Below, piece by piece: positions 3,546 to 43,823 of a stretch of DNA of 45,453 nt. Location of the stretch: sequence record OR911938.1. One strand, given 5' to 3'. Below the pieces are notes generated by a model. That model worked only from the letters and a program-made list of their open reading frames with translations. It was not told the DNA's origin and did not search any database. Position 1 is the stretch's first letter, and each line of letters starts with the position of its first letter. Source of the stretch: Escherichia phage vB_EcoS_SD276. Position numbers and translations under genes: made by a program.

Positions 3546-4632
3546 TCAATATATGGCGGATCGAATGATCCGCCGGCACATCTTCACCCAGCGCCTGAGC
3601 AATGGCCAGGCGCGAAGGGTGCTGGCTATGTGGGAGAAATTCCGGCCTACATTACTGGGGAAGCTGACCGAGTTGCTTGATGGCAAAAAGTCCATGAATA
3701 ATAAGGCACTTTCCACGCTGTTAACGCAACTCGACAAGACCGTTAAAGCAGAATTGCGCACCGAGTTTAAGGTGTTGGCTGAAAGCCTTCAGGAGTTTGC
3801 CGACACGGAGGCTGATTATCTCGCCGACACATTAACGGCAGCGATCCAGCCGGTGGTCGCCGTACCTGCGGTCGAGGTGGTTGGCGTAGTGACCGGTGCG
3901 CAGATCGCAGCGACGGCTATGAAAAACCCGTTCCAGGGAAATACCATGATGCAATGGCCTGATTCATTGTCTGAGTGGGCCAGGACGCAGATCAGGAATC
4001 AGGTGCGCGCTGGATTCATCCAGGGCAAGCCAACTATGGAAATTATAGCGGACGTGAGGCGCGCGCTCGGCGGTCGTAGTGCGCAAGCCATCTCGAGCGT
4101 TGTTAAGTCCGCAGTCAACCACTATGCGGCGACAGCCCGCGAACTAATGGTAAAAGCAAATGACGATATTCTCGAAGGTCGCCAATGGTTATCTACATTG
4201 GACACGCATACTTCTCCCATGTGCCAGCTACGCGATCGCCTGTTTTATCCGGTTGATGTTACTCCCGACACCAAAGGAAAGCGCGGCGGGAAAGTGGTGG
4301 CTGGGTCACAATATGGCGCTGGTCCGGGCAAGTTGCATTACTGTTGCCGGTCGACGGAGACGTGGAAGGTTAAAGGCATGGAAGATTGGCCCAGTGGTAA
4401 GCGTCCGGCACTGAAGGCTGACGCGGGTCGATTGCTGAGTGAGCAGGTCGACGCGCAGACTGATTTCTTCTCATGGGTGCAGCGCCAGCCGCGCCATATC
4501 CTGGAAGAATTATACGGAGTGCAACGCGCCGACCAGATTATGCGCGGCGTGAAAGTGCCAAAGATGTTCACCGATTCCGGCGAACTGATGACTATTGCAC
4601 AGCTTAAAAACCGGGGGTTGTGGCGTGATTAA
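3529..4632 (+). CDS. minor head / head morphogenesis protein (Mu F / SPP1 gp7-like)
   Basis: 367 aa after portal; C-terminal motif LSTLDTHTSPMCQLRDRLFYPVD resembles the Mu F-family domain. Confidence 0.6.
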   Translation: MAKTINQYMADRMIRRHIFTQRLSNGQARRVLAMWEKFRPTLLGKLTELLDGKKSMNNKALSTLLTQLDKTVKAELRTEFKVLAESLQEFADTEADYLADTLTAAIQPVVAVPAVEVVGVVTGAQIAATAMKNPFQGNTMMQWPDSLSEWARTQIRNQVRAGFIQGKPTMEIIADVRRALGGRSAQAISSVVKSAVNHYAATARELMVKANDDILEGRQWLSTLDTHTSPMCQLRDRLFYPVDVTPDTKGKRGGKVVAGSQYGAGPGKLHYCCRSTETWKVKGMEDWPSGKRPALKADAGRLLSEQVDAQTDFFSWVQRQPRHILEELYGVQRADQIMRGVKVPKMFTDSGELMTIAQLKNRGLWRD

Positions 4633-4954
4633 ATATGCAGCGATTGGACTGGTTATCGGTCTGGCGGTAGGATTCTGGCTAGGCGACTCCTATCGCGCTG
4701 GCGTAGTGGCGGGGGCGGCGCAAGAAGCGCAAGCCCAAGCCCAACGGCAGCAAACTAAAGTTGTTGAGCGCTCCGTGCAGGCCGAACAAGCCCGCGACGT
4801 AGAATACCGGACTATCACGAAAGAGGTTGTTAAATATGTTACGCGCCCTAACCGCCCTGATTGTAGTTTTGATGCTGAGCGCGTGCGGATCAAGCAACGC
4901 GCCGTTGATGCCGCTAACGGAGTCGGCACTGCGACCGCCGTGCAAGTTCGATAG
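4595..4954 (+). CDS. i-spanin (Rz-like); start may be GTG at 4625
   Basis: N-terminal transmembrane helix IKYAAIGLVIGLAVGFWLG followed by Q/A-rich coiled-coil segment; contains an out-of-frame lipoprotein ORF. Confidence 0.5.
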   Translation: MHSLKTGGCGVIKYAAIGLVIGLAVGFWLGDSYRAGVVAGAAQEAQAQAQRQQTKVVERSVQAEQARDVEYRTITKEVVKYVTRPNRPDCSFDAERVRIKQRAVDAANGVGTATAVQVR

Positions 4955-5066
4955 ACCGTCCGCAGACCCCGACGAAGATTTGATGATTGACGTGAAAAAT
5001 ATGGAATGCGGGGCGAAGCTAAGGGCGCAGGTGCTGGAGTTGCAGCAAATAATTAAGGGGCCATAA
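4827..5066 (+). CDS. o-spanin (Rz1-like outer-membrane lipoprotein), overlapping the Rz-like gene in another frame
   Basis: Signal peptide with lipobox LSAC-G, short Pro-containing mature part, embedded in and extending past the i-spanin ORF. Confidence 0.5.
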   Translation: MLNMLRALTALIVVLMLSACGSSNAPLMPLTESALRPPCKFDRPSADPDEDLMIDVKNMECGAKLRAQVLELQQIIKGP

Positions 5067-5884: not shown

Positions 5885-6199
5885 TTAGTTGAATTTGATG
5901 TTGCCACCGGTGGAAGTTAAGCGGGCACATACAGCTTCAACGGCATCGACGCACATGAAATCGTTAAAGGCTTCGACCAGGGAGTTTATGAAAGATGCCG
6001 GAACCAGGCCGCAAGCCGGATTATCGAATATCGCGGAGTTGATCGCCGCTTTTGCCGCTTCAGAAGCATTCATGCTCTGGCACAGATTCAGCGCTTCAGC
6101 GTTACGCATTGCGTGAAAGGTAAAGGTATTCGCTACGGTAGCTTTATTGAAACGGGCCATTGCGGCGTCTACTGGAGTTGCTACGGTCATGTTAGTCAT
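5885..6199 (-). CDS. hypothetical protein (~105 aa), antisense cassette gene 1
   Basis: ORF with RBS AAGGAAGACAAA-ATG downstream of a sigma70-like promoter (6235-6264, minus). Confidence 0.5.
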   Translation of the reverse strand: MTNMTVATPVDAAMARFNKATVANTFTFHAMRNAEALNLCQSMNASEAAKAAINSAIFDNPACGLVPASFINSLVEAFNDFMCVDAVEAVCARLTSTGGNIKFN

Positions 6200-11828: not shown

Positions 11829-12142
11829 GCGGGACAAGCGGGACGTCCCGCTTGTCCCGCACCTCTAAAAACTGCATATTTACCCGCCAACATTGCATAA
11901 ATTAAAAGCGGGACAGGGTGCTGTCCCGATCTGTCCCGCCCACAAAATGTGAATATCTATTCAGTTTTCGTGCATAAAACAAACGGGACAAAAAGCGGGA
12001 CAGAATGGGGTGGGACAGATCGGGACAGCACCCTGTCCCCGCCAGTGCTGCCGCGGGTTTTAGCCGATCGGGACAGGCGGGACAAAGCCCAGTCTTTCAG
12101 ACTAGACGGGGGTCATTGGCCCCCCTCGTCTGAGACTGAATA
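11829..12142. repeat. GGGACA-rich non-coding element, copy A (32-bp perfect palindrome + repeat array + 53-bp hairpin module)
   Basis: At least 12 GGGACA/TGTCCC hexamers; palindrome GCGGGACAAGCGGGAC|GTCCCGCTTGTCCCGC at 11829-11860; module 12090-12142 identical to 40286-40338. Confidence 0.7.
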
Positions 12143-12206
12143 AGGTTTGTTTTAAATTCGCTGATACAATTAACGACGGCAACTGCATAAAAAGGGGGAC
12201 TGCATA

Positions 12207-40017: not shown

Positions 40018-40127
40018 AATTTGCGCGCATTGGTTGCCGATATGGGAATTCCCATATCGCTAAAAGACTAAAATTTGCGCGCATTGGTTGCCATTTTGAG
40101 TGTTTTTAGCTGGTCGCATTGGTTGCC
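40016..40127. repeat. GCATTGGTTGCC iteron-like direct repeats (3 copies) with inverted copy at 40398-40409
   Basis: AAAATTTGCGCGCATTGGTTGCC at 40016-40038 and 40070-40092, GCATTGGTTGCC at 40116-40127; flanks 20-bp perfect palindrome GATATGGGAATTCCCATATC (40039-40058). Confidence 0.6.
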
Positions 40128-40153
40128 GTGTAGTGTAAATATAATGAATAGTT

Positions 40154-40338
40154 ATGCAGTTTTATTGCATAAAGTAAGCGGGACAAAAAGAGGGACAGAC
40201 CAGGGGCGGGACAAAGCGGGACAGCACCCCCGTCCCGCCCCGGATGACGCGGCCTGGCGGGGAGCGGGACAGGCGGGACAAACCCCAGTCTTTCAGACTA
40301 GACGGGGGTCATTGGCCCCCCTCGTCTGAGACTGAATA
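40154..40338. repeat. GGGACA-rich non-coding element, copy B
   Basis: TTGCATAAA-N-GCGGGACA array ending in the same 53-bp module as copy A (identical by eye). Confidence 0.7.
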
Positions 40339-40493
40339 AAATCCGGGATTGCAAAATACACGGCAGCACATTGGAAATCGCGGTCGTCGACGAACTAGGC
40401 AACCAATGCGAGATGCGGAATGGTGGGTGGAAAATGCAGTTTGCATTTGCAACGGATAGCGATCGACTTTTTCATACGCGTGATTAATATTGG

Positions 40494-40522
40494 TTGCATT
40501 CGTGCCCGCACCCTGCTAGATT
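40494..40522 (+). promoter_or_regulatory. sigma70-like promoter (TTGCAT-N17-TAGATT)
   Basis: Followed by GGTTGCACACCAAC, the same motif that follows the -10 of promoter 6235-6264. Confidence 0.5.
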
Positions 40523-40550
40523 GGTTGCACACCAACATGAGGACCGAACA

Positions 40551-40877
40551 ATGAAAGCGATTATCTGGAATTACGCAATGGCGATGGCGAAGGCACAAGA
40601 AGCGGCGGAGTTCGCCGGTGAGGGGGCGGAAGCAGTAGAAAGACTATCGGCCGCGTGGGCTGTTGTGCGGGTAACGCAGCAGGCCATCGCCGTTATGCTT
40701 GAGCGCCGCTTCGACACGATGGATGAGATCCAGCCACTGGCGAACGCCATCCAGGACTACGCGCTAGCATTCTCCCGCGAGCGCCTGGCATATCGCTTCG
40801 GGATCGGTGAGACGGCAGCGACAAACATCGCCAGGATTAAAGCCCAGCGCGAACTATTCGCCCAGCTTGCGAAATAA
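40551..40877 (+). CDS. hypothetical protein (108 aa)
   Basis: ORF with promoter 40494-40522 and RBS GAGGA upstream. Confidence 0.45.
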   Translation: MKAIIWNYAMAMAKAQEAAEFAGEGAEAVERLSAAWAVVRVTQQAIAVMLERRFDTMDEIQPLANAIQDYALAFSRERLAYRFGIGETAATNIARIKAQRELFAQLAK

Positions 40878-40886
40878 GGGGCCAAA

Positions 40887-41156
40887 ATGGACCGCAGACG
40901 AGCTAAACAGCTTTCGTGGCATATTCCACTGCATTGCATACGAATATGGGCTAAGAATGCGATTGAGGGCGATTCTGTGTTCTGGAGCTATCGCGACGAT
41001 GTGAAGCCATTAACGCAGACTCGCTATCTGCACCAGTTCGCCAGGGAGCATGGGCTTGCCATAAAAACGTCCTTGCGACCAATTGGCATCCGTATTACAT
41101 TACGCCGGAAGCCCGCAGTCGAGCGGGTAGGCAAACACTGGAGACTGAGCAAATGA
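40887..41156 (+). CDS. hypothetical protein (89 aa)
   Basis: RBS AAGGGG before ATG. Confidence 0.4.
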   Translation: MDRRRAKQLSWHIPLHCIRIWAKNAIEGDSVFWSYRDDVKPLTQTRYLHQFAREHGLAIKTSLRPIGIRITLRRKPAVERVGKHWRLSK

Positions 41157-41296
41157 CACCGGCACTAATGGCAGGATTCTCGCAGAAGTTTATTTCTGTT
41201 GATGCCTGCATAGCAGATTATGAGATGGACGGCATCGCTACTGTGTGCGATGGCGACACGAAAACTGCCGATGAGATTGAGGAGACAGCGCAATGA
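41153..41296 (+). CDS. small hypothetical protein (47 aa)
   Basis: Start and stop overlap neighbours (ATGA junctions), suggesting translational coupling. Confidence 0.3.
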   Translation: MTPALMAGFSQKFISVDACIADYEMDGIATVCDGDTKTADEIEETAQ

Positions 41297-41823
41297 AATT
41301 ACTATTCCGCCGCAAATCAGACGGCAAAATCCTGAGGCCAATACAGACCCTTGAGGCACACGTCCGCTTGCATCACGCCGCGAGTGATCTGGTTTGGTGG
41401 GCGAATAAGGCTAAGCTGCCGGAGAAATACGAAATCCTCACGCATGATATCGAGCGCGGCGATGTGCTGCGTGATATTCGCGACGGTAGTATGTGGATCG
41501 TTGAATATGTCGGTCTTCATGGCCTGCGTATGCAGAACCGCAAGGATGGCGTGGCTGGTATGACTTACTTCGGCCTTGTCAACTACGAACGAGTGGGCCG
41601 CAACTACAGCCTACGCGACCGCAAGTCGCAGCCCGCCTACGCAACCTACGACTCCCACCAGGTGCAGGCGAAGATGGGCCGCGCCGTACACGAAATCATC
41701 AATCGCTTTGATGCCGTGACGAATGCACAGCGCCATGCGCAGGAATACGGCGTTGGATTCATCCAGGTGGAGCGAGACGGCAGCATGAAAGCCATCGACC
41801 CGCGCTCGGTGATTCTGAAATGA
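41293..41823 (+). CDS. hypothetical protein (176 aa)
   Basis: ORF in operon with overlapping junctions. Confidence 0.45.
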   Translation: MKLLFRRKSDGKILRPIQTLEAHVRLHHAASDLVWWANKAKLPEKYEILTHDIERGDVLRDIRDGSMWIVEYVGLHGLRMQNRKDGVAGMTYFGLVNYERVGRNYSLRDRKSQPAYATYDSHQVQAKMGRAVHEIINRFDAVTNAQRHAQEYGVGFIQVERDGSMKAIDPRSVILK

Positions 41824-41966
41824 GTGCGACGATCCGTGATATGCTTCAGTACAACCGCTTTGAGATAGGCGGTCGGGTATTTCGCAATTACTTCGTGGCG
41901 CGTGCATGGGCGCGCCATATTGGCAAACCTGAAGGGGCAATTCGATGCTATACGTCTTCGCGGTAG
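41820..41966 (+). CDS. small hypothetical protein (48 aa)
   Basis: ATGA-coupled ORF. Confidence 0.3.
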   Translation: MSATIRDMLQYNRFEIGGRVFRNYFVARAWARHIGKPEGAIRCYTSSR

Positions 41967-42042
41967 TATGTGGCGGTAGTCTGGCGGCCCTGGTGCTGTT
42001 GGCGTCGGTTATTAGTCTGGTTAAATACCTATGGGGCAGATT

Positions 42043-42330
42043 ATGATTCATGATGTGATTTATTGGTTTGGTTTGATCTGCGGGTTGTGCCTGCTTACCG
42101 CGGTGTTGTTGGGCGTCCTGATGTTCGTAGTCTGGCCCGCCGTGGAAGCCGCCAGCATTACCCGCATGACGTTCGAGGTATACAAGCGCCGTGGAATCAC
42201 GGAGCACCCGACCAGGTTGCGCATGTGGTGGCTGTGGTATCGGGATATGATAGGCGGGCGAACATTCGAGGCCGTCAGGTCGAGTGGATGGGAGTGGAAA
42301 GGCGTCGGCAAGTGGTCCATTTTCGATTAA
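42043..42330 (+). CDS. membrane protein (alternative start 42031)
   Basis: N-terminal hydrophobic helices WFGLICGLCLLTAVLLGVLMFVVW. Confidence 0.4.
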   Translation: MIHDVIYWFGLICGLCLLTAVLLGVLMFVVWPAVEAASITRMTFEVYKRRGITEHPTRLRMWWLWYRDMIGGRTFEAVRSSGWEWKGVGKWSIFD

Positions 42331-42347
42331 TTATGCAAGCGTGATAT

Positions 42348-42382
42348 AGTCCCAGTGAGCTAAAACTTACTGGGACTTTTTT
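42348..42382 (+). terminator. terminator-like hairpin immediately upstream of holin-like gene
   Basis: AGTCCCAGT-12 nt loop-ACTGGGACT followed by TTTTTT then ATG. Confidence 0.5.
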
Positions 42383-42673
42383 ATGGATAAGCTAAACGAG
42401 TGGCTATTCGCCCTGGCATGTCTGGCGGGTGGCTTCGTAGGCGCACGCATTCATGGCGAGGCCACGAAAGGGCCACTAAACTTCGTTTTGTATGTTGTAG
42501 TTGGCTTCCTGTGTGCCATATTTGGCGCACCGGCTATTGCCGAGTGGGCTGGTTTGTCGGGCGAGCGCACTGTCGCCGGTTTAGGCTTCGTAACCGCAAT
42601 CTTCTGGATGCCAATCGCCGACCGGATCCGGGAGACTATTGCGTCGTTCCGACTTCCGGGGGGTGCAAAATGA
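42383..42673 (+). CDS. holin-like membrane protein
   Basis: 96 aa with three predicted hydrophobic segments, immediately upstream of lysozyme gene. Confidence 0.5.
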   Translation: MDKLNEWLFALACLAGGFVGARIHGEATKGPLNFVLYVVVGFLCAIFGAPAIAEWAGLSGERTVAGLGFVTAIFWMPIADRIRETIASFRLPGGAK

Positions 42674-42915
42674 TTATCTCCGTCCTGTTGTTTGTTATCA
42701 TAGGGGCTTCGTCCCTGTTTAACGTGTATGCGCCGTCCGTCCAGGATGGCATTTTCGGTCGGGTGCTGTATCTGTTAACGGCAATGGTCTGTATTATCGG
42801 ATTGTTGCAAACAGGAGACGTATCTGATACCACCTGGACCGCGTTAATCTGGCTGTTTGCATTGCGCACACTGCGTAATGCTGTTTTGAATGGGGTAAAA
42901 CATGCGATTCAGTGA
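42670..42915 (+). CDS. second small membrane protein (holin/antiholin candidate)
   Basis: 81 aa, hydrophobic segments; overlaps both neighbours. Confidence 0.4.
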   Translation: MIISVLLFVIIGASSLFNVYAPSVQDGIFGRVLYLLTAMVCIIGLLQTGDVSDTTWTALIWLFALRTLRNAVLNGVKHAIQ

Positions 42916-43393
42916 CAACGGTCTACGATTTACGGCAGCATGGGAGGCTTTCAGCCCGGTGCCGTATTTCGCGACCAAGAAAGAGCAGGCCCGCGGCCTG
43001 TACACCTGGGGTTATGGTCATACCGGCACTAACCCGCCGCGAAGCATTACCCGAGCGGAAGCGCTGGATCTGCTTAAGCGCGATGTGGCGTACGCTGAGG
43101 ACTGGGTGAACAAATACGCACATCCGAGCATTAACCAGGCGCAATTCGACGCGCTGGTGGACCTGGTAATCAACGCCGGTCCTGGTCCGATCGTACCGGA
43201 TGACGTCGCGAATGATTTCGATGATGCGGTGCGACTGGGCGACTGGGCGAAGGTCCGGGCTATACTGCCGCAGTTCCGCAAGCAAGGCGGGTCGGTGCTC
43301 TTAGGTCTGGTACGTCGCGCAATCGGCAGACAGGCGCTATTCGATGGTAAGCAGTGGGACGTTGCCGAGAAAATCGGGCGTAACGCAGCATAA
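42902..43393 (+). CDS. endolysin, lysozyme-like (GH24-type)
   Basis: N-terminal catalytic region with WEAF...YTWGYGHTG resembling phage lysozymes. Confidence 0.65.
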   Translation: MRFSDNGLRFTAAWEAFSPVPYFATKKEQARGLYTWGYGHTGTNPPRSITRAEALDLLKRDVAYAEDWVNKYAHPSINQAQFDALVDLVINAGPGPIVPDDVANDFDDAVRLGDWAKVRAILPQFRKQGGSVLLGLVRRAIGRQALFDGKQWDVAEKIGRNAA

Positions 43394-43409: not shown

Positions 43410-43823
43410 ATGTTAAAAAGCATTCTTGATCATAACGCTGACGCGCTCGCCGCGCTGGCTAAAACCGAAGACCCTGGCGCACGCGCTATCATCGCGGACA
43501 CTATCAGCCATGCAGGCGTCTTTGACGCGAAGCTGCCGAGTGTGCCGGAAAGTAAGCCGGTGGCAAGTGCGACCGTAACCATCACCCCAGTGTCAGCCGC
43601 AGTTGGTGCGAAGGCCGCCGCTTCAGTTGCCGTCCTGCCATCCGACGCAACTAACAAGGCTGGGTCGTGGGTGTCTGCAAACCCTGACTGCGCGGCAATC
43701 GATCAGGCTACCGGCGAAATCACAGCAAAATCGGAGGGTAGCGTCCACATCTTTTGGGTGGCGTCCGATGGAGGCGGGGCGCTGGCGTCCGCCATCTTCA
43801 CCGTAACGGGAGCCGCGGAATAA
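43410..43823 (+). CDS. hypothetical protein with bacterial Ig-like (Big_2-like) C-terminal domain
   Basis: Pattern VTITPVSAAV...AIDQATGEITAKSEGSVHIFW typical of Ig-like domains. Confidence 0.45.
   Translation: MLKSILDHNADALAALAKTEDPGARAIIADTISHAGVFDAKLPSVPESKPVASATVTITPVSAAVGAKAAASVAVLPSDATNKAGSWVSANPDCAAIDQATGEITAKSEGSVHIFWVASDGGGALASAIFTVTGAAE

Follow-up and report, generated by a model that had tools for sequence, protein, structure and literature searches.

What does a compact cluster of small, overlapping reading frames contribute to a phage when none of its products carries a recognizable motif? This question is raised by positions 40551–42330 of Escherichia phage vB_EcoS_SD276, a Dhillonvirus, whose sequence of 45,453 nucleotides (nt; record OR911938.1), referred to here in its entirety as the window, carries at this place a block of seven short plus-strand open reading frames (ORFs), designated A to G, flanked by an origin-like repeat region on one side and the lysis genes on the other. 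The answer at which we arrive, held with somewhat more belief than doubt, is that the block constitutes one transcription unit of seven small genes whose products serve as conditionally useful modulators, improving infection in natural hosts. According to this proposal, a sigma70-type promoter belonging to the block would drive all seven genes, most of them translationally coupled through ATGA overlaps, and a strong and invariant hairpin terminator would separate them from the holin/holin/endolysin cassette that follows. The products of A to E would bind host or phage macromolecules, F and G would act at the inner membrane, and the role of the block would be sought in host takeover, counter-defence, exclusion or lysis timing rather than in essential replication, transcription or morphogenesis. 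The products look like small binding or membrane proteins because of the predicted folds of A and D, the charges of B and C, the hydropathy of F and G and the lack of any enzyme-family match; the expression time, binding targets and biological role of the block are what we infer. In its general character, the block is an ordinary, well-delimited phage ORFan cassette and not a new type of system.

Layout and boundaries of the seven genes

The genes of the block and the two elements that appear to delimit it are as follows (aa, amino acids):

40489–40528, plus strand: putative promoter of the block, with −35 TTGCAT at 40494–40499, a 17-nt spacer and −10 TAGATT at 40517–40522
40551–40877, plus strand: gene A, 108 aa
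40887–41156, plus strand: gene B, 89 aa
41153–41296, plus strand: gene C, 47 aa
41293–41823, plus strand: gene D, 176 aa
41820–41966, plus strand: gene E, 48 aa
41945–42046, plus strand: gene F, 33 aa
42043–42330, plus strand: gene G, 95 aa (99 aa if the ATG at 42031 is used)
42348–42382, plus strand: intrinsic terminator-like hairpin with a 12-bp stem, a 6-nt loop and a T-run, adjoining the holin ATG at 42383

A preliminary description of the locus had placed a block of six to seven short ORFs at 40551–42330, upstream of the lysis genes and next to an origin-like region, and both the block and its location were recovered here. The size range that it gave, 47–176 aa, is right at its upper end but not at its lower one, the smallest product being F with 33 aa. 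The several ATGA overlaps to which it referred are real and number exactly four (B/C, C/D, D/E and F/G), and E and F overlap by 22 nt. Shine–Dalgarno sequences precede A, B, C, D, F and G (at 42043), E having a weak one only. The start of G was taken as 42043 because the PHROG alignment begins at residue 5 of the 99-aa form and the ATG at 42031 has no Shine–Dalgarno sequence or ribosome-binding site.

Comparison with 12 related loci argues that the ORFs are separate genes. Orthologues are intact wherever they were found in this set, with the exception of one truncated B (locus L009); C was detected in 10 and F in 7 of the 12, and the boundaries, start sites and overlaps of the seven genes are conserved in the relatives. 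The ratio of non-synonymous to synonymous substitution rates (dN/dS), calculated by the Nei–Gojobori method across the 12 relatives, was 0.50 for A, 0.18 for B, 0.21 for C, 0.24 for D, 0.12 for E and 0.21 for G, with a value of 0.31 for F that is based on few substitutions, and all seven genes are under purifying selection; the flanking primase-helicase (0.06), holin (0.05 and 0.11) and endolysin (0.07) genes gave the lower end of the scale. Public Dhillonvirus records annotate the same ORFs individually as hypothetical proteins, with identical overlaps. The spread of the short ORFs over three frames, together with a 198-aa antisense ORF (41611–42207) overlapping D to G, might suggest that a single gene has been broken up by frameshifts, that the ORFs arose by chance or that they merely shadow a gene of the other strand, but such an origin is scarcely conceivable and is already refuted by the comparative data, since the relatives carry the ORFs with unchanged starts, stops and overlaps, purifying selection follows the annotated frames, and A and the N-terminal domain of D are confidently predicted to fold on their own. 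A single frameshifted gene, an alternative put forward in the preliminary description itself, is excluded by these conserved boundaries, by selection and by the independent folds, the last of which come from the structure prediction that it had proposed as a check and that gave confident AlphaFold models for A and the N-terminal domain of D.

Two further ORFs were considered and set aside. The antisense ORF was ruled out as a real gene, being broken by stops in 11 of the 12 relatives. An upstream ORF (40420–40554), which has an ATGA overlap with A, spans the promoter and is annotated in some relatives, was dropped as an eighth gene because frame-specific constraint was not found, the ratio of non-synonymous to synonymous differences (pN/pS) being 0.66 in the ORF's own frame and 0.43 and 0.86 in the two alternatives.

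The putative promoter lies ~22 nt upstream of the ribosome-binding site of A and is conserved as an element in the 12 relatives, its −10 hexamer TAGATT reading TATATT in most of them. A consensus promoter scanner listed no plus-strand promoter-like site between 37000 and 43860, so it is by eye that we infer a sigma70-type promoter of the block's own at the right edge of the origin-like repeat region. Two copies of a 9-mer, ATTGGTTGC, at 40489–40497 and 40520–40528, flank or overlap this promoter, the second overlapping the −10 element and the start region. Where chance would give 0.46 exact copies of this 9-mer in the window, there are 13, which begin at the following positions:

6229, 22337, 26053, 27714, 27731, 30672, 37217, 40029, 40083, 40118, 40399, 40489 and 40520: copies of ATTGGTTGC

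Six of the 13 fall within the 530-nt non-coding stretch upstream of A (40018–40550), which is conserved and highly repetitive. Several of the sites, read by eye, overlap a TTGCAx −35 hexamer 16–18 nt from a TATAtT-like −10, and the 9-mer looks like a phage-wide promoter or operator element. A longer string, ATTGGTTGCACACCAACA, is common to the block promoter (40520) and the leader of a minus-strand gene that starts near 6191 in the head-gene region.

At the other end of the block, the hairpin at 42348–42382 was the top-ranked terminator-like site in the scan (−24.8 kcal/mol, z −4.9). The 52 nt that separate G from the first holin gene (42331–42382) are essentially invariant in the 12 relatives, where synonymous divergence (dS) in the flanking coding sequence is ~0.3; their variation consists of two loop positions, one upstream substitution (L011) and one extra T (L008). 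With a putative promoter of its own in front and a hairpin terminator before the holin gene, the block is best read as a promoter-to-terminator operon, which would be insulated from the lysis cassette.

The hairpin has a second aspect. Its 3′ arm and T-run abut the holin ATG, so that the stem contains the holin ribosome-binding site. An extended −10-like element, TGATATAGT, at 42342–42350 overlaps the 5′ arm, and a transcript initiating within the hairpin would escape both termination and sequestration of the site. An analogous hairpin encloses the holin Shine–Dalgarno sequence in phage ORH_001 (locus L018, about 4165–4205).

Conservation, gene flux and predicted products

The 2.3-kb stretch around the block is matched by 156 phage records at 80–95% nucleotide identity, nearly all of them Escherichia or Shigella Dhillonvirus. 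When the distribution of each gene was followed by tblastn against 50,697 phage records, A to F proved to be confined to Dhillonvirus, the numbers of Dhillonvirus records being 156 for A, B and G (the last at full length), 155 for D, 151 for E, 104 for C and 51 for F, the last figure corresponding to about one third of the roughly 156 genomes. A, B, D, E and G form the core set of the genus, with C and F as optional members. The block is also a site of gene flux, as is evident from the insertion of F, from an extra gene found in some relatives, and from the linker insertions and zinc-ribbon tails of D. The extra gene encodes 59 aa (MKTEMVNKREIKIGDTVVHNGELRTV...) and is present in 3 of the 12 relatives (L001, 3540–3926; L011; L012), where it stands between the promoter and A, at the equivalent of window position 40545/40551, and uses the same leader.

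Natural deletions extend this picture. Teewinot, a viable plaque-forming isolate of 41.8 kb, keeps A, B and the terminator/holin junction; in its locus (L020, 2431–2820), codon ~71 of D is fused to codon ~53 of G and a second deletion removes 61 nt, and together these changes destroy D, E, F and G and shorten C. PNS1 (L021, 1501–1762), likewise viable, retains A, B, C and G together with a D stump of 69 aa, and is without E, F and residues 70–176 of D. Because both isolates are viable, the genes that they have lost (D to G destroyed, C shortened) are dispensable for laboratory plaque formation. Teewinot and PNS1 are at the same time ready-made mutants for phenotype tests.

Searches of Pfam, NCBIfam and PADLOC returned no significant match for any of A to G, the PADLOC defence-family hidden Markov models giving none at E ≤ 1, and six of the seven products match only PHROG families of unknown function, F matching none, in agreement with the absence of recognizable motifs noted in the preliminary description. 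Profile searches of the Protein Data Bank (PDB) with A, B, E and G gave nothing or noise (for B, noise only), and neither Rfam families nor tRNAs were detected when the whole window was scanned.

Gene A is modelled by AlphaFold (AF2) as a four-helix bundle (pLDDT 94.7, pTM 0.86) in which residues 1–17 and 60–108 (helices 3–4) are almost invariant and helix 2 (about 18–60) is hypervariable, with several allelic forms. By virtue of this hypervariable helix, A is the member of the block most suggestive of an arms race. Its Foldseek matches in the PDB are generic helical bundles only (E ≥ 0.35), and its PHROG family is phrog_9839. The possibility of a sigma-region-4-like or helix–turn–helix (HTH) DNA binder found no support for A, the four-helix bundle having neither an informative structural neighbour nor a PDB sequence match. 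B and C form a coupled pair of a very basic and a very acidic mini-protein: B (phrog_12533) has a net charge of +13 and an isoelectric point (pI) of 11.4 and is 82–94% conserved among the 12 loci, while C (phrog_15977), with a net charge of −8 and a pI of 4.1, varies in sequence and length. E (phrog_13628) is basic, is 91–98% identical across relatives and has no Pfam match. Its reading as a truncated NinH-like HTH protein, drawn by eye from the strings 'TIRDML' and 'ARHIGKPEGAIRCY', was discarded after an hhalign comparison of the E and NinH alignments gave a probability of 0.3% over 10 aligned columns only.

The largest product, D, is composed of two conserved parts joined by a variable linker with insertions of 0–29 aa. 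The N-terminal domain (1–105) is all-beta, with an AF2 pLDDT of about 90, and its model looks like a pair of small five-stranded barrels; the C-terminal module, with a pLDDT below 50, is conserved and holds the invariant motif NRFDAVTNAQRHAQEYG.GFI.VE.DGS in what is predicted to be a conserved helix-hairpin. Some variants carry a zinc-ribbon tail. Foldseek comparison of the N-terminal domain with the PDB retrieved, as its best matches, Spt5 KOW pairs, the RapA N-terminal domain, TraI translocation-signal domains and tandem Tudor domains (probability 0.9–1.0, E 6e-3 to 0.1, TM ≤ 0.46, 7–13% identity), and the modelled domain resembles tandem SH3/KOW/Tudor-like barrels. The C-terminal module has no counterpart in these proteins. 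In sequence, D belongs to phrog_10243 and phrog_27442, both of unknown function, and its homologues fall into 439 clusters (90% identity), of which the 120 listed all lack a Pfam domain; the KOW and Tudor models of Pfam matched none of 35 D-family members at E ≤ 10.

The small hydrophobic peptides mentioned in the preliminary description are F and G, whose maximum Kyte–Doolittle values in a 19-residue window are 2.45 and 2.85. Nucleotide alignment indicates that F, a single-pass hydrophobic peptide, owes its existence to an insertion of 99 bp: where the phage lacks F, G is started directly from the ribosome-binding site and ATG that serve F here (41945). Wherever present, F is at least 90% identical, and its only similarity, a faint one, is to the transmembrane segment of G (35% over 26 aa, E 0.02 within the window). 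In G, a single transmembrane segment at the N-terminus is accompanied by an invariant juxtamembrane motif, WPAVEAASITRMT, and by a C-terminal domain of ~60 aa that is basic and rich in Trp and Arg; the protein matches only phrog_2531 and phrog_31127, of unknown function. A word-indexed homologue search with G found Dhillonvirus relatives only. An exhaustive profile search of 1.8 billion representatives gave only 30 cluster representatives, nearly all (a few fragments aside) of about 90–130 aa and with no obvious domain fusions among them, and homologues occur elsewhere in Jerseyvirus, in Peatvirus, in phage ORH_001 and in a Serratia Ackermannviridae phage. In Dhillonvirus, G stands immediately upstream of the holin/holin/endolysin cassette; in the E. 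coli phage ORH_001, its homologue is one gene upstream of a homologous set, and in Jerseyvirus, where a ‘NinH family’ protein precedes it, it is ~0.9 kb downstream of one, just upstream of terminase.

Possible roles of the block

The suggestion in the preliminary description that these genes provide host-takeover or anti-defence functions accords with their profile, which is that of host-interaction or fitness genes: they are tiny, non-enzymatic, genus-restricted, kept in nearly all genomes and lost in part in two viable isolates. Its anti-defence component, on the other hand, finds no PADLOC match, and the known immune genes of the genus lie elsewhere, leaving the general idea reasonable but unproven. 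Comparable assemblages are the lambda nin region, the class I 0.x genes of T7 and the early ‘ORFan’ clusters of T4, which also consist of packed, overlapping small genes between replication and lysis, are likewise mostly non-essential in the laboratory and a hot spot of insertion and deletion, and have many products that are small and bind host proteins. A to G showed no similarity, in sequence or profile, to any nin, T7 or T4 protein, the sole lead (E and NinH) having failed, and the SD276 block differs from them in having what appear to be its own promoter and terminator, with 5 of its 7 genes core to the genus.

Several points weigh against the view that the block supplies conditionally useful modulators. 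For D, the fold matches are weak, with E no better than 6e-3 and TM ≤ 0.46, and the SH3-like barrel is a ubiquitous fold. A homologue of G is found among replication and recombination genes in Pectobacterium phage PEAT2 and among unrelated hypothetical genes in Serratia phage 3M, and the linkage of G to lysis is therefore not universal. A and B are kept even in the deletion variants and could be essential regulators, and the near-universal retention of A, B, D, E and G is less typical of anti-defence genes, which tend to be patchy. The one published Dhillonvirus proteome, from cells infected with phage EE09 and from its lysates, lists the endolysin and the Ig-domain protein and none of the block proteins (PMC10673088), and a search of the literature found neither expression or phenotype data for the seven proteins nor a phage transcriptome that would bear on the early expression supposed in the preliminary description.

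Four more specific readings compete with, or would sharpen, that of a cassette of modulators. One is that the block, wholly or partly, is a counter-defence cassette, in which A would serve as inhibitor or decoy, its hypervariable helix keeping pace with a variable host immune protein, C would be an acidic inhibitor of the DNA-mimic type, and the remaining products would neutralize further systems. We consider this possible though on balance unlikely. The several allelic forms of helix 2 between conserved flanks in A, the small, strongly acidic and variable C, and the dispensability of C to G in culture (C being only shortened in Teewinot) speak in its favour, as do the small proteins with anti-defence or immune-trigger activity already known from Dhillonviruses. 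Of the two with demonstrated immune roles, Ksap1 is the trigger of KpAvs2 (PMC11564622) and anti-Tmn is ORF35 of phage SM_S22, encoded in the minus-strand replication/modification region (PMC11846954); both resemble A to G in being small, genus-restricted proteins without detectable homologues of known function, and their natural variation alters the interaction with host immunity. Both are nonetheless encoded outside the block, their genes mapping to the minus-strand region, and A to G differ from them by position or size: in the SM_S22 record, CDS0033–0035 lie at 25.2–26.4 kb on the opposite strand, and the block corresponds to CDS0058–0064. On these grounds, taken from the papers and the SM_S22 annotation, the identification of any of A to G with Ksap1 or anti-Tmn was rejected. 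Counter-defence is further disfavoured by the absence of any defence-related family among the PADLOC matches, by the core rather than patchy distribution of A, B, D, E and G, and by the escape-mutant studies found in the literature, which map outside these genes, those of SECphi18 falling in the portal, SSB and DNA polymerase genes. A different division of labour, which we judge improbable, would make A and/or B essential regulators, for example binding DNA at ATTGGTTGC or at the origin-like repeats and controlling a late or lysis transcription switch, with the downstream genes auxiliary. Both genes are present in 156 of 156 records and survive in both deletion variants, B is extremely basic and well conserved, the C-terminal half of A is nearly invariant, and the block lies directly downstream of repeated motifs, two copies of which overlap its promoter. 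A and B are the only candidates in the block for an essential regulatory role, but the model of A is a plain four-helix bundle and not an HTH, the only HTH match (HTH_Tnp_4, 14.5 bits against a cut-off of 27) is far below threshold, B has no PDB or Pfam relative, and no DNA-binding fold emerged for either protein.

The other two readings concern single products. G, with F where present, might be an antiholin-like membrane regulator of lysis timing that acts on the two-holin system and is made before the holins, a tentative proposal that we find more doubtful than credible. It draws on the proximity of G homologues to homologous holin/holin/endolysin cassettes in three lineages, on the single transmembrane segment with its conserved juxtamembrane motif and on the intervening terminator, which puts G in the upstream transcript and for that reason leads one to expect it before the holins. 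Against it stand the homologues of PEAT2 and Serratia phage 3M, which are not annotated beside lysis genes, the lack of similarity of G to holin and antiholin families in PHROG and Pfam (F matching nothing), and Teewinot, which lyses and forms plaques without G; superinfection exclusion or another membrane role would fit the same data. G is nevertheless the member of the block most likely to be tied to the lysis module. For D, it could be imagined that the protein docks on host RNA polymerase, its KOW/Tudor-like barrels serving as a polymerase-binding module and its invariant NRFDAVTNAQRHAQEYG helix imitating the conserved helix of the E. coli omega subunit, in which case D would compete for or extend the omega/beta-prime site. 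That site also forms ppGpp site 1. We hold such docking to be highly improbable. When the PDB was searched with the D profile, the only hit was to the omega subunit of E. coli RNA polymerase (residues 4–32, 13 of 29 identical, E 0.5–1), in a segment spanning the invariant NRFDAVTNAQRHAQEYGVG of D; hhalign of D against omega gave P 5.5e-4 and a probability of 30%, with 48% identity over 27 columns; the top Foldseek matches, Spt5 KOW pairs and the RapA N-terminal domain, are of the polymerase-binding kind (Spt5/NusG, RapA); and BFVD yields one further match, a weak one, to the ‘host shutoff protein’ of a Bacillus phage. A PDB E of 0.5 is, however, at noise level, the profile of B scoring unrelated proteins equally; the hhalign result is not independent, because it was run only after the database match had been seen; the Pfam omega/Rpb6 model (PF01192) matched none of 35 D-family members even at E ≤ 10; E. 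coli genomes have no nucleotide similarity to D; the model of the C-terminal module is of low confidence; and the ubiquity of SH3-like barrels applies here as well. With the Pfam omega model unmatched and the PDB E at noise, the C-terminus of D was not accepted as an omega homologue and is kept as a low-probability lead. A literature search found no phage-encoded omega mimic, and if the docking were true, host transcription would be taken over in a way that, to our knowledge, no phage has been described to use.

With this analysis, seven ‘hypothetical proteins’ become a defined experimental unit of one promoter, seven genes and one terminator, for which the core and optional genes, the naturally deleted genes (D to G) and two structural models are now on record. 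The Dhillonviruses, a common group of E. coli phages, feature in the BASEL collection, serve in studies of defence systems and are candidates for therapy. The block offers a short list for takeover, counter-defence, exclusion and lysis-timing screens, and it marks a safe site for phage engineering payloads.

Neighbouring genes and other features of the window

The lysis genes of the window are these:

42383–42673 and 42670–42915: holins of the downstream lysis cassette
42902–43393: endolysin of the same cassette
4595–4954: i-spanin, overlapped with the o-spanin
4836–5066: o-spanin

The two holin genes match phrog_2359 and phrog_2508. The spanin pair matches HK578_005 in the catalogue of Kongari et al. 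2018 (PMC6139136), which includes the Dhillonvirus spanins; these genes, of the Jersey family, come after the head-morphogenesis genes, ~7 kb past the endolysin on the permuted map and thus far from the holin/endolysin cassette. F and G were rejected as spanins, as a six-frame scan found no lipobox in 40551–42330 and the spanins are located elsewhere; G has neither a lipobox nor a long periplasmic coiled coil, its soluble domain being basic, rich in Trp and ~60 aa long. The holins, endolysin and spanins of Dhillonvirus are homologous to those of Jerseyvirus, and the two genera also have the G family in common, which lies within ~1 kb of holin/holin/endolysin in both genera and in ORH_001, although G itself is not a holin, endolysin or spanin and is not in a lysis neighbourhood in PEAT2.

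One to two genes upstream of the holins, ORH_001 (L018, 3838–4131) and Jerseyvirus (L014, 630–995) encode a homologous basic protein of 97–121 aa (...LGEFKTQERAAIANRLF...), AP2-like by eye, which could be a lysis or late-gene regulator; no counterpart of it was seen in the Dhillonvirus block. After the endolysin, a 137-aa ORF (43410–43823) begins with 48 conserved aa, contains a Big_2 Ig-like domain that varies, and is reduced to ~55 aa in some relatives; its EE09 orthologue was detected in phage lysates and infected cells (PMC10673088).

Within the origin-like region, a 195-nt element (40145–40339) combines GGGACA iterons with a long GC-rich hairpin, and a second copy with 83% identity occupies a non-coding gap at 11950–12143, just upstream of the tape-measure gene; a 45-kb genome with such an origin-like or protein-binding array in duplicate is a puzzle. 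Between the central and side tail fibre genes, a minus-strand ORF of 73 aa (22281–22060) begins with a lipoprotein signal (MKTLIMICAVLLSGC...) and is a candidate for a receptor-blocking exclusion lipoprotein of the Cor/Llp type.

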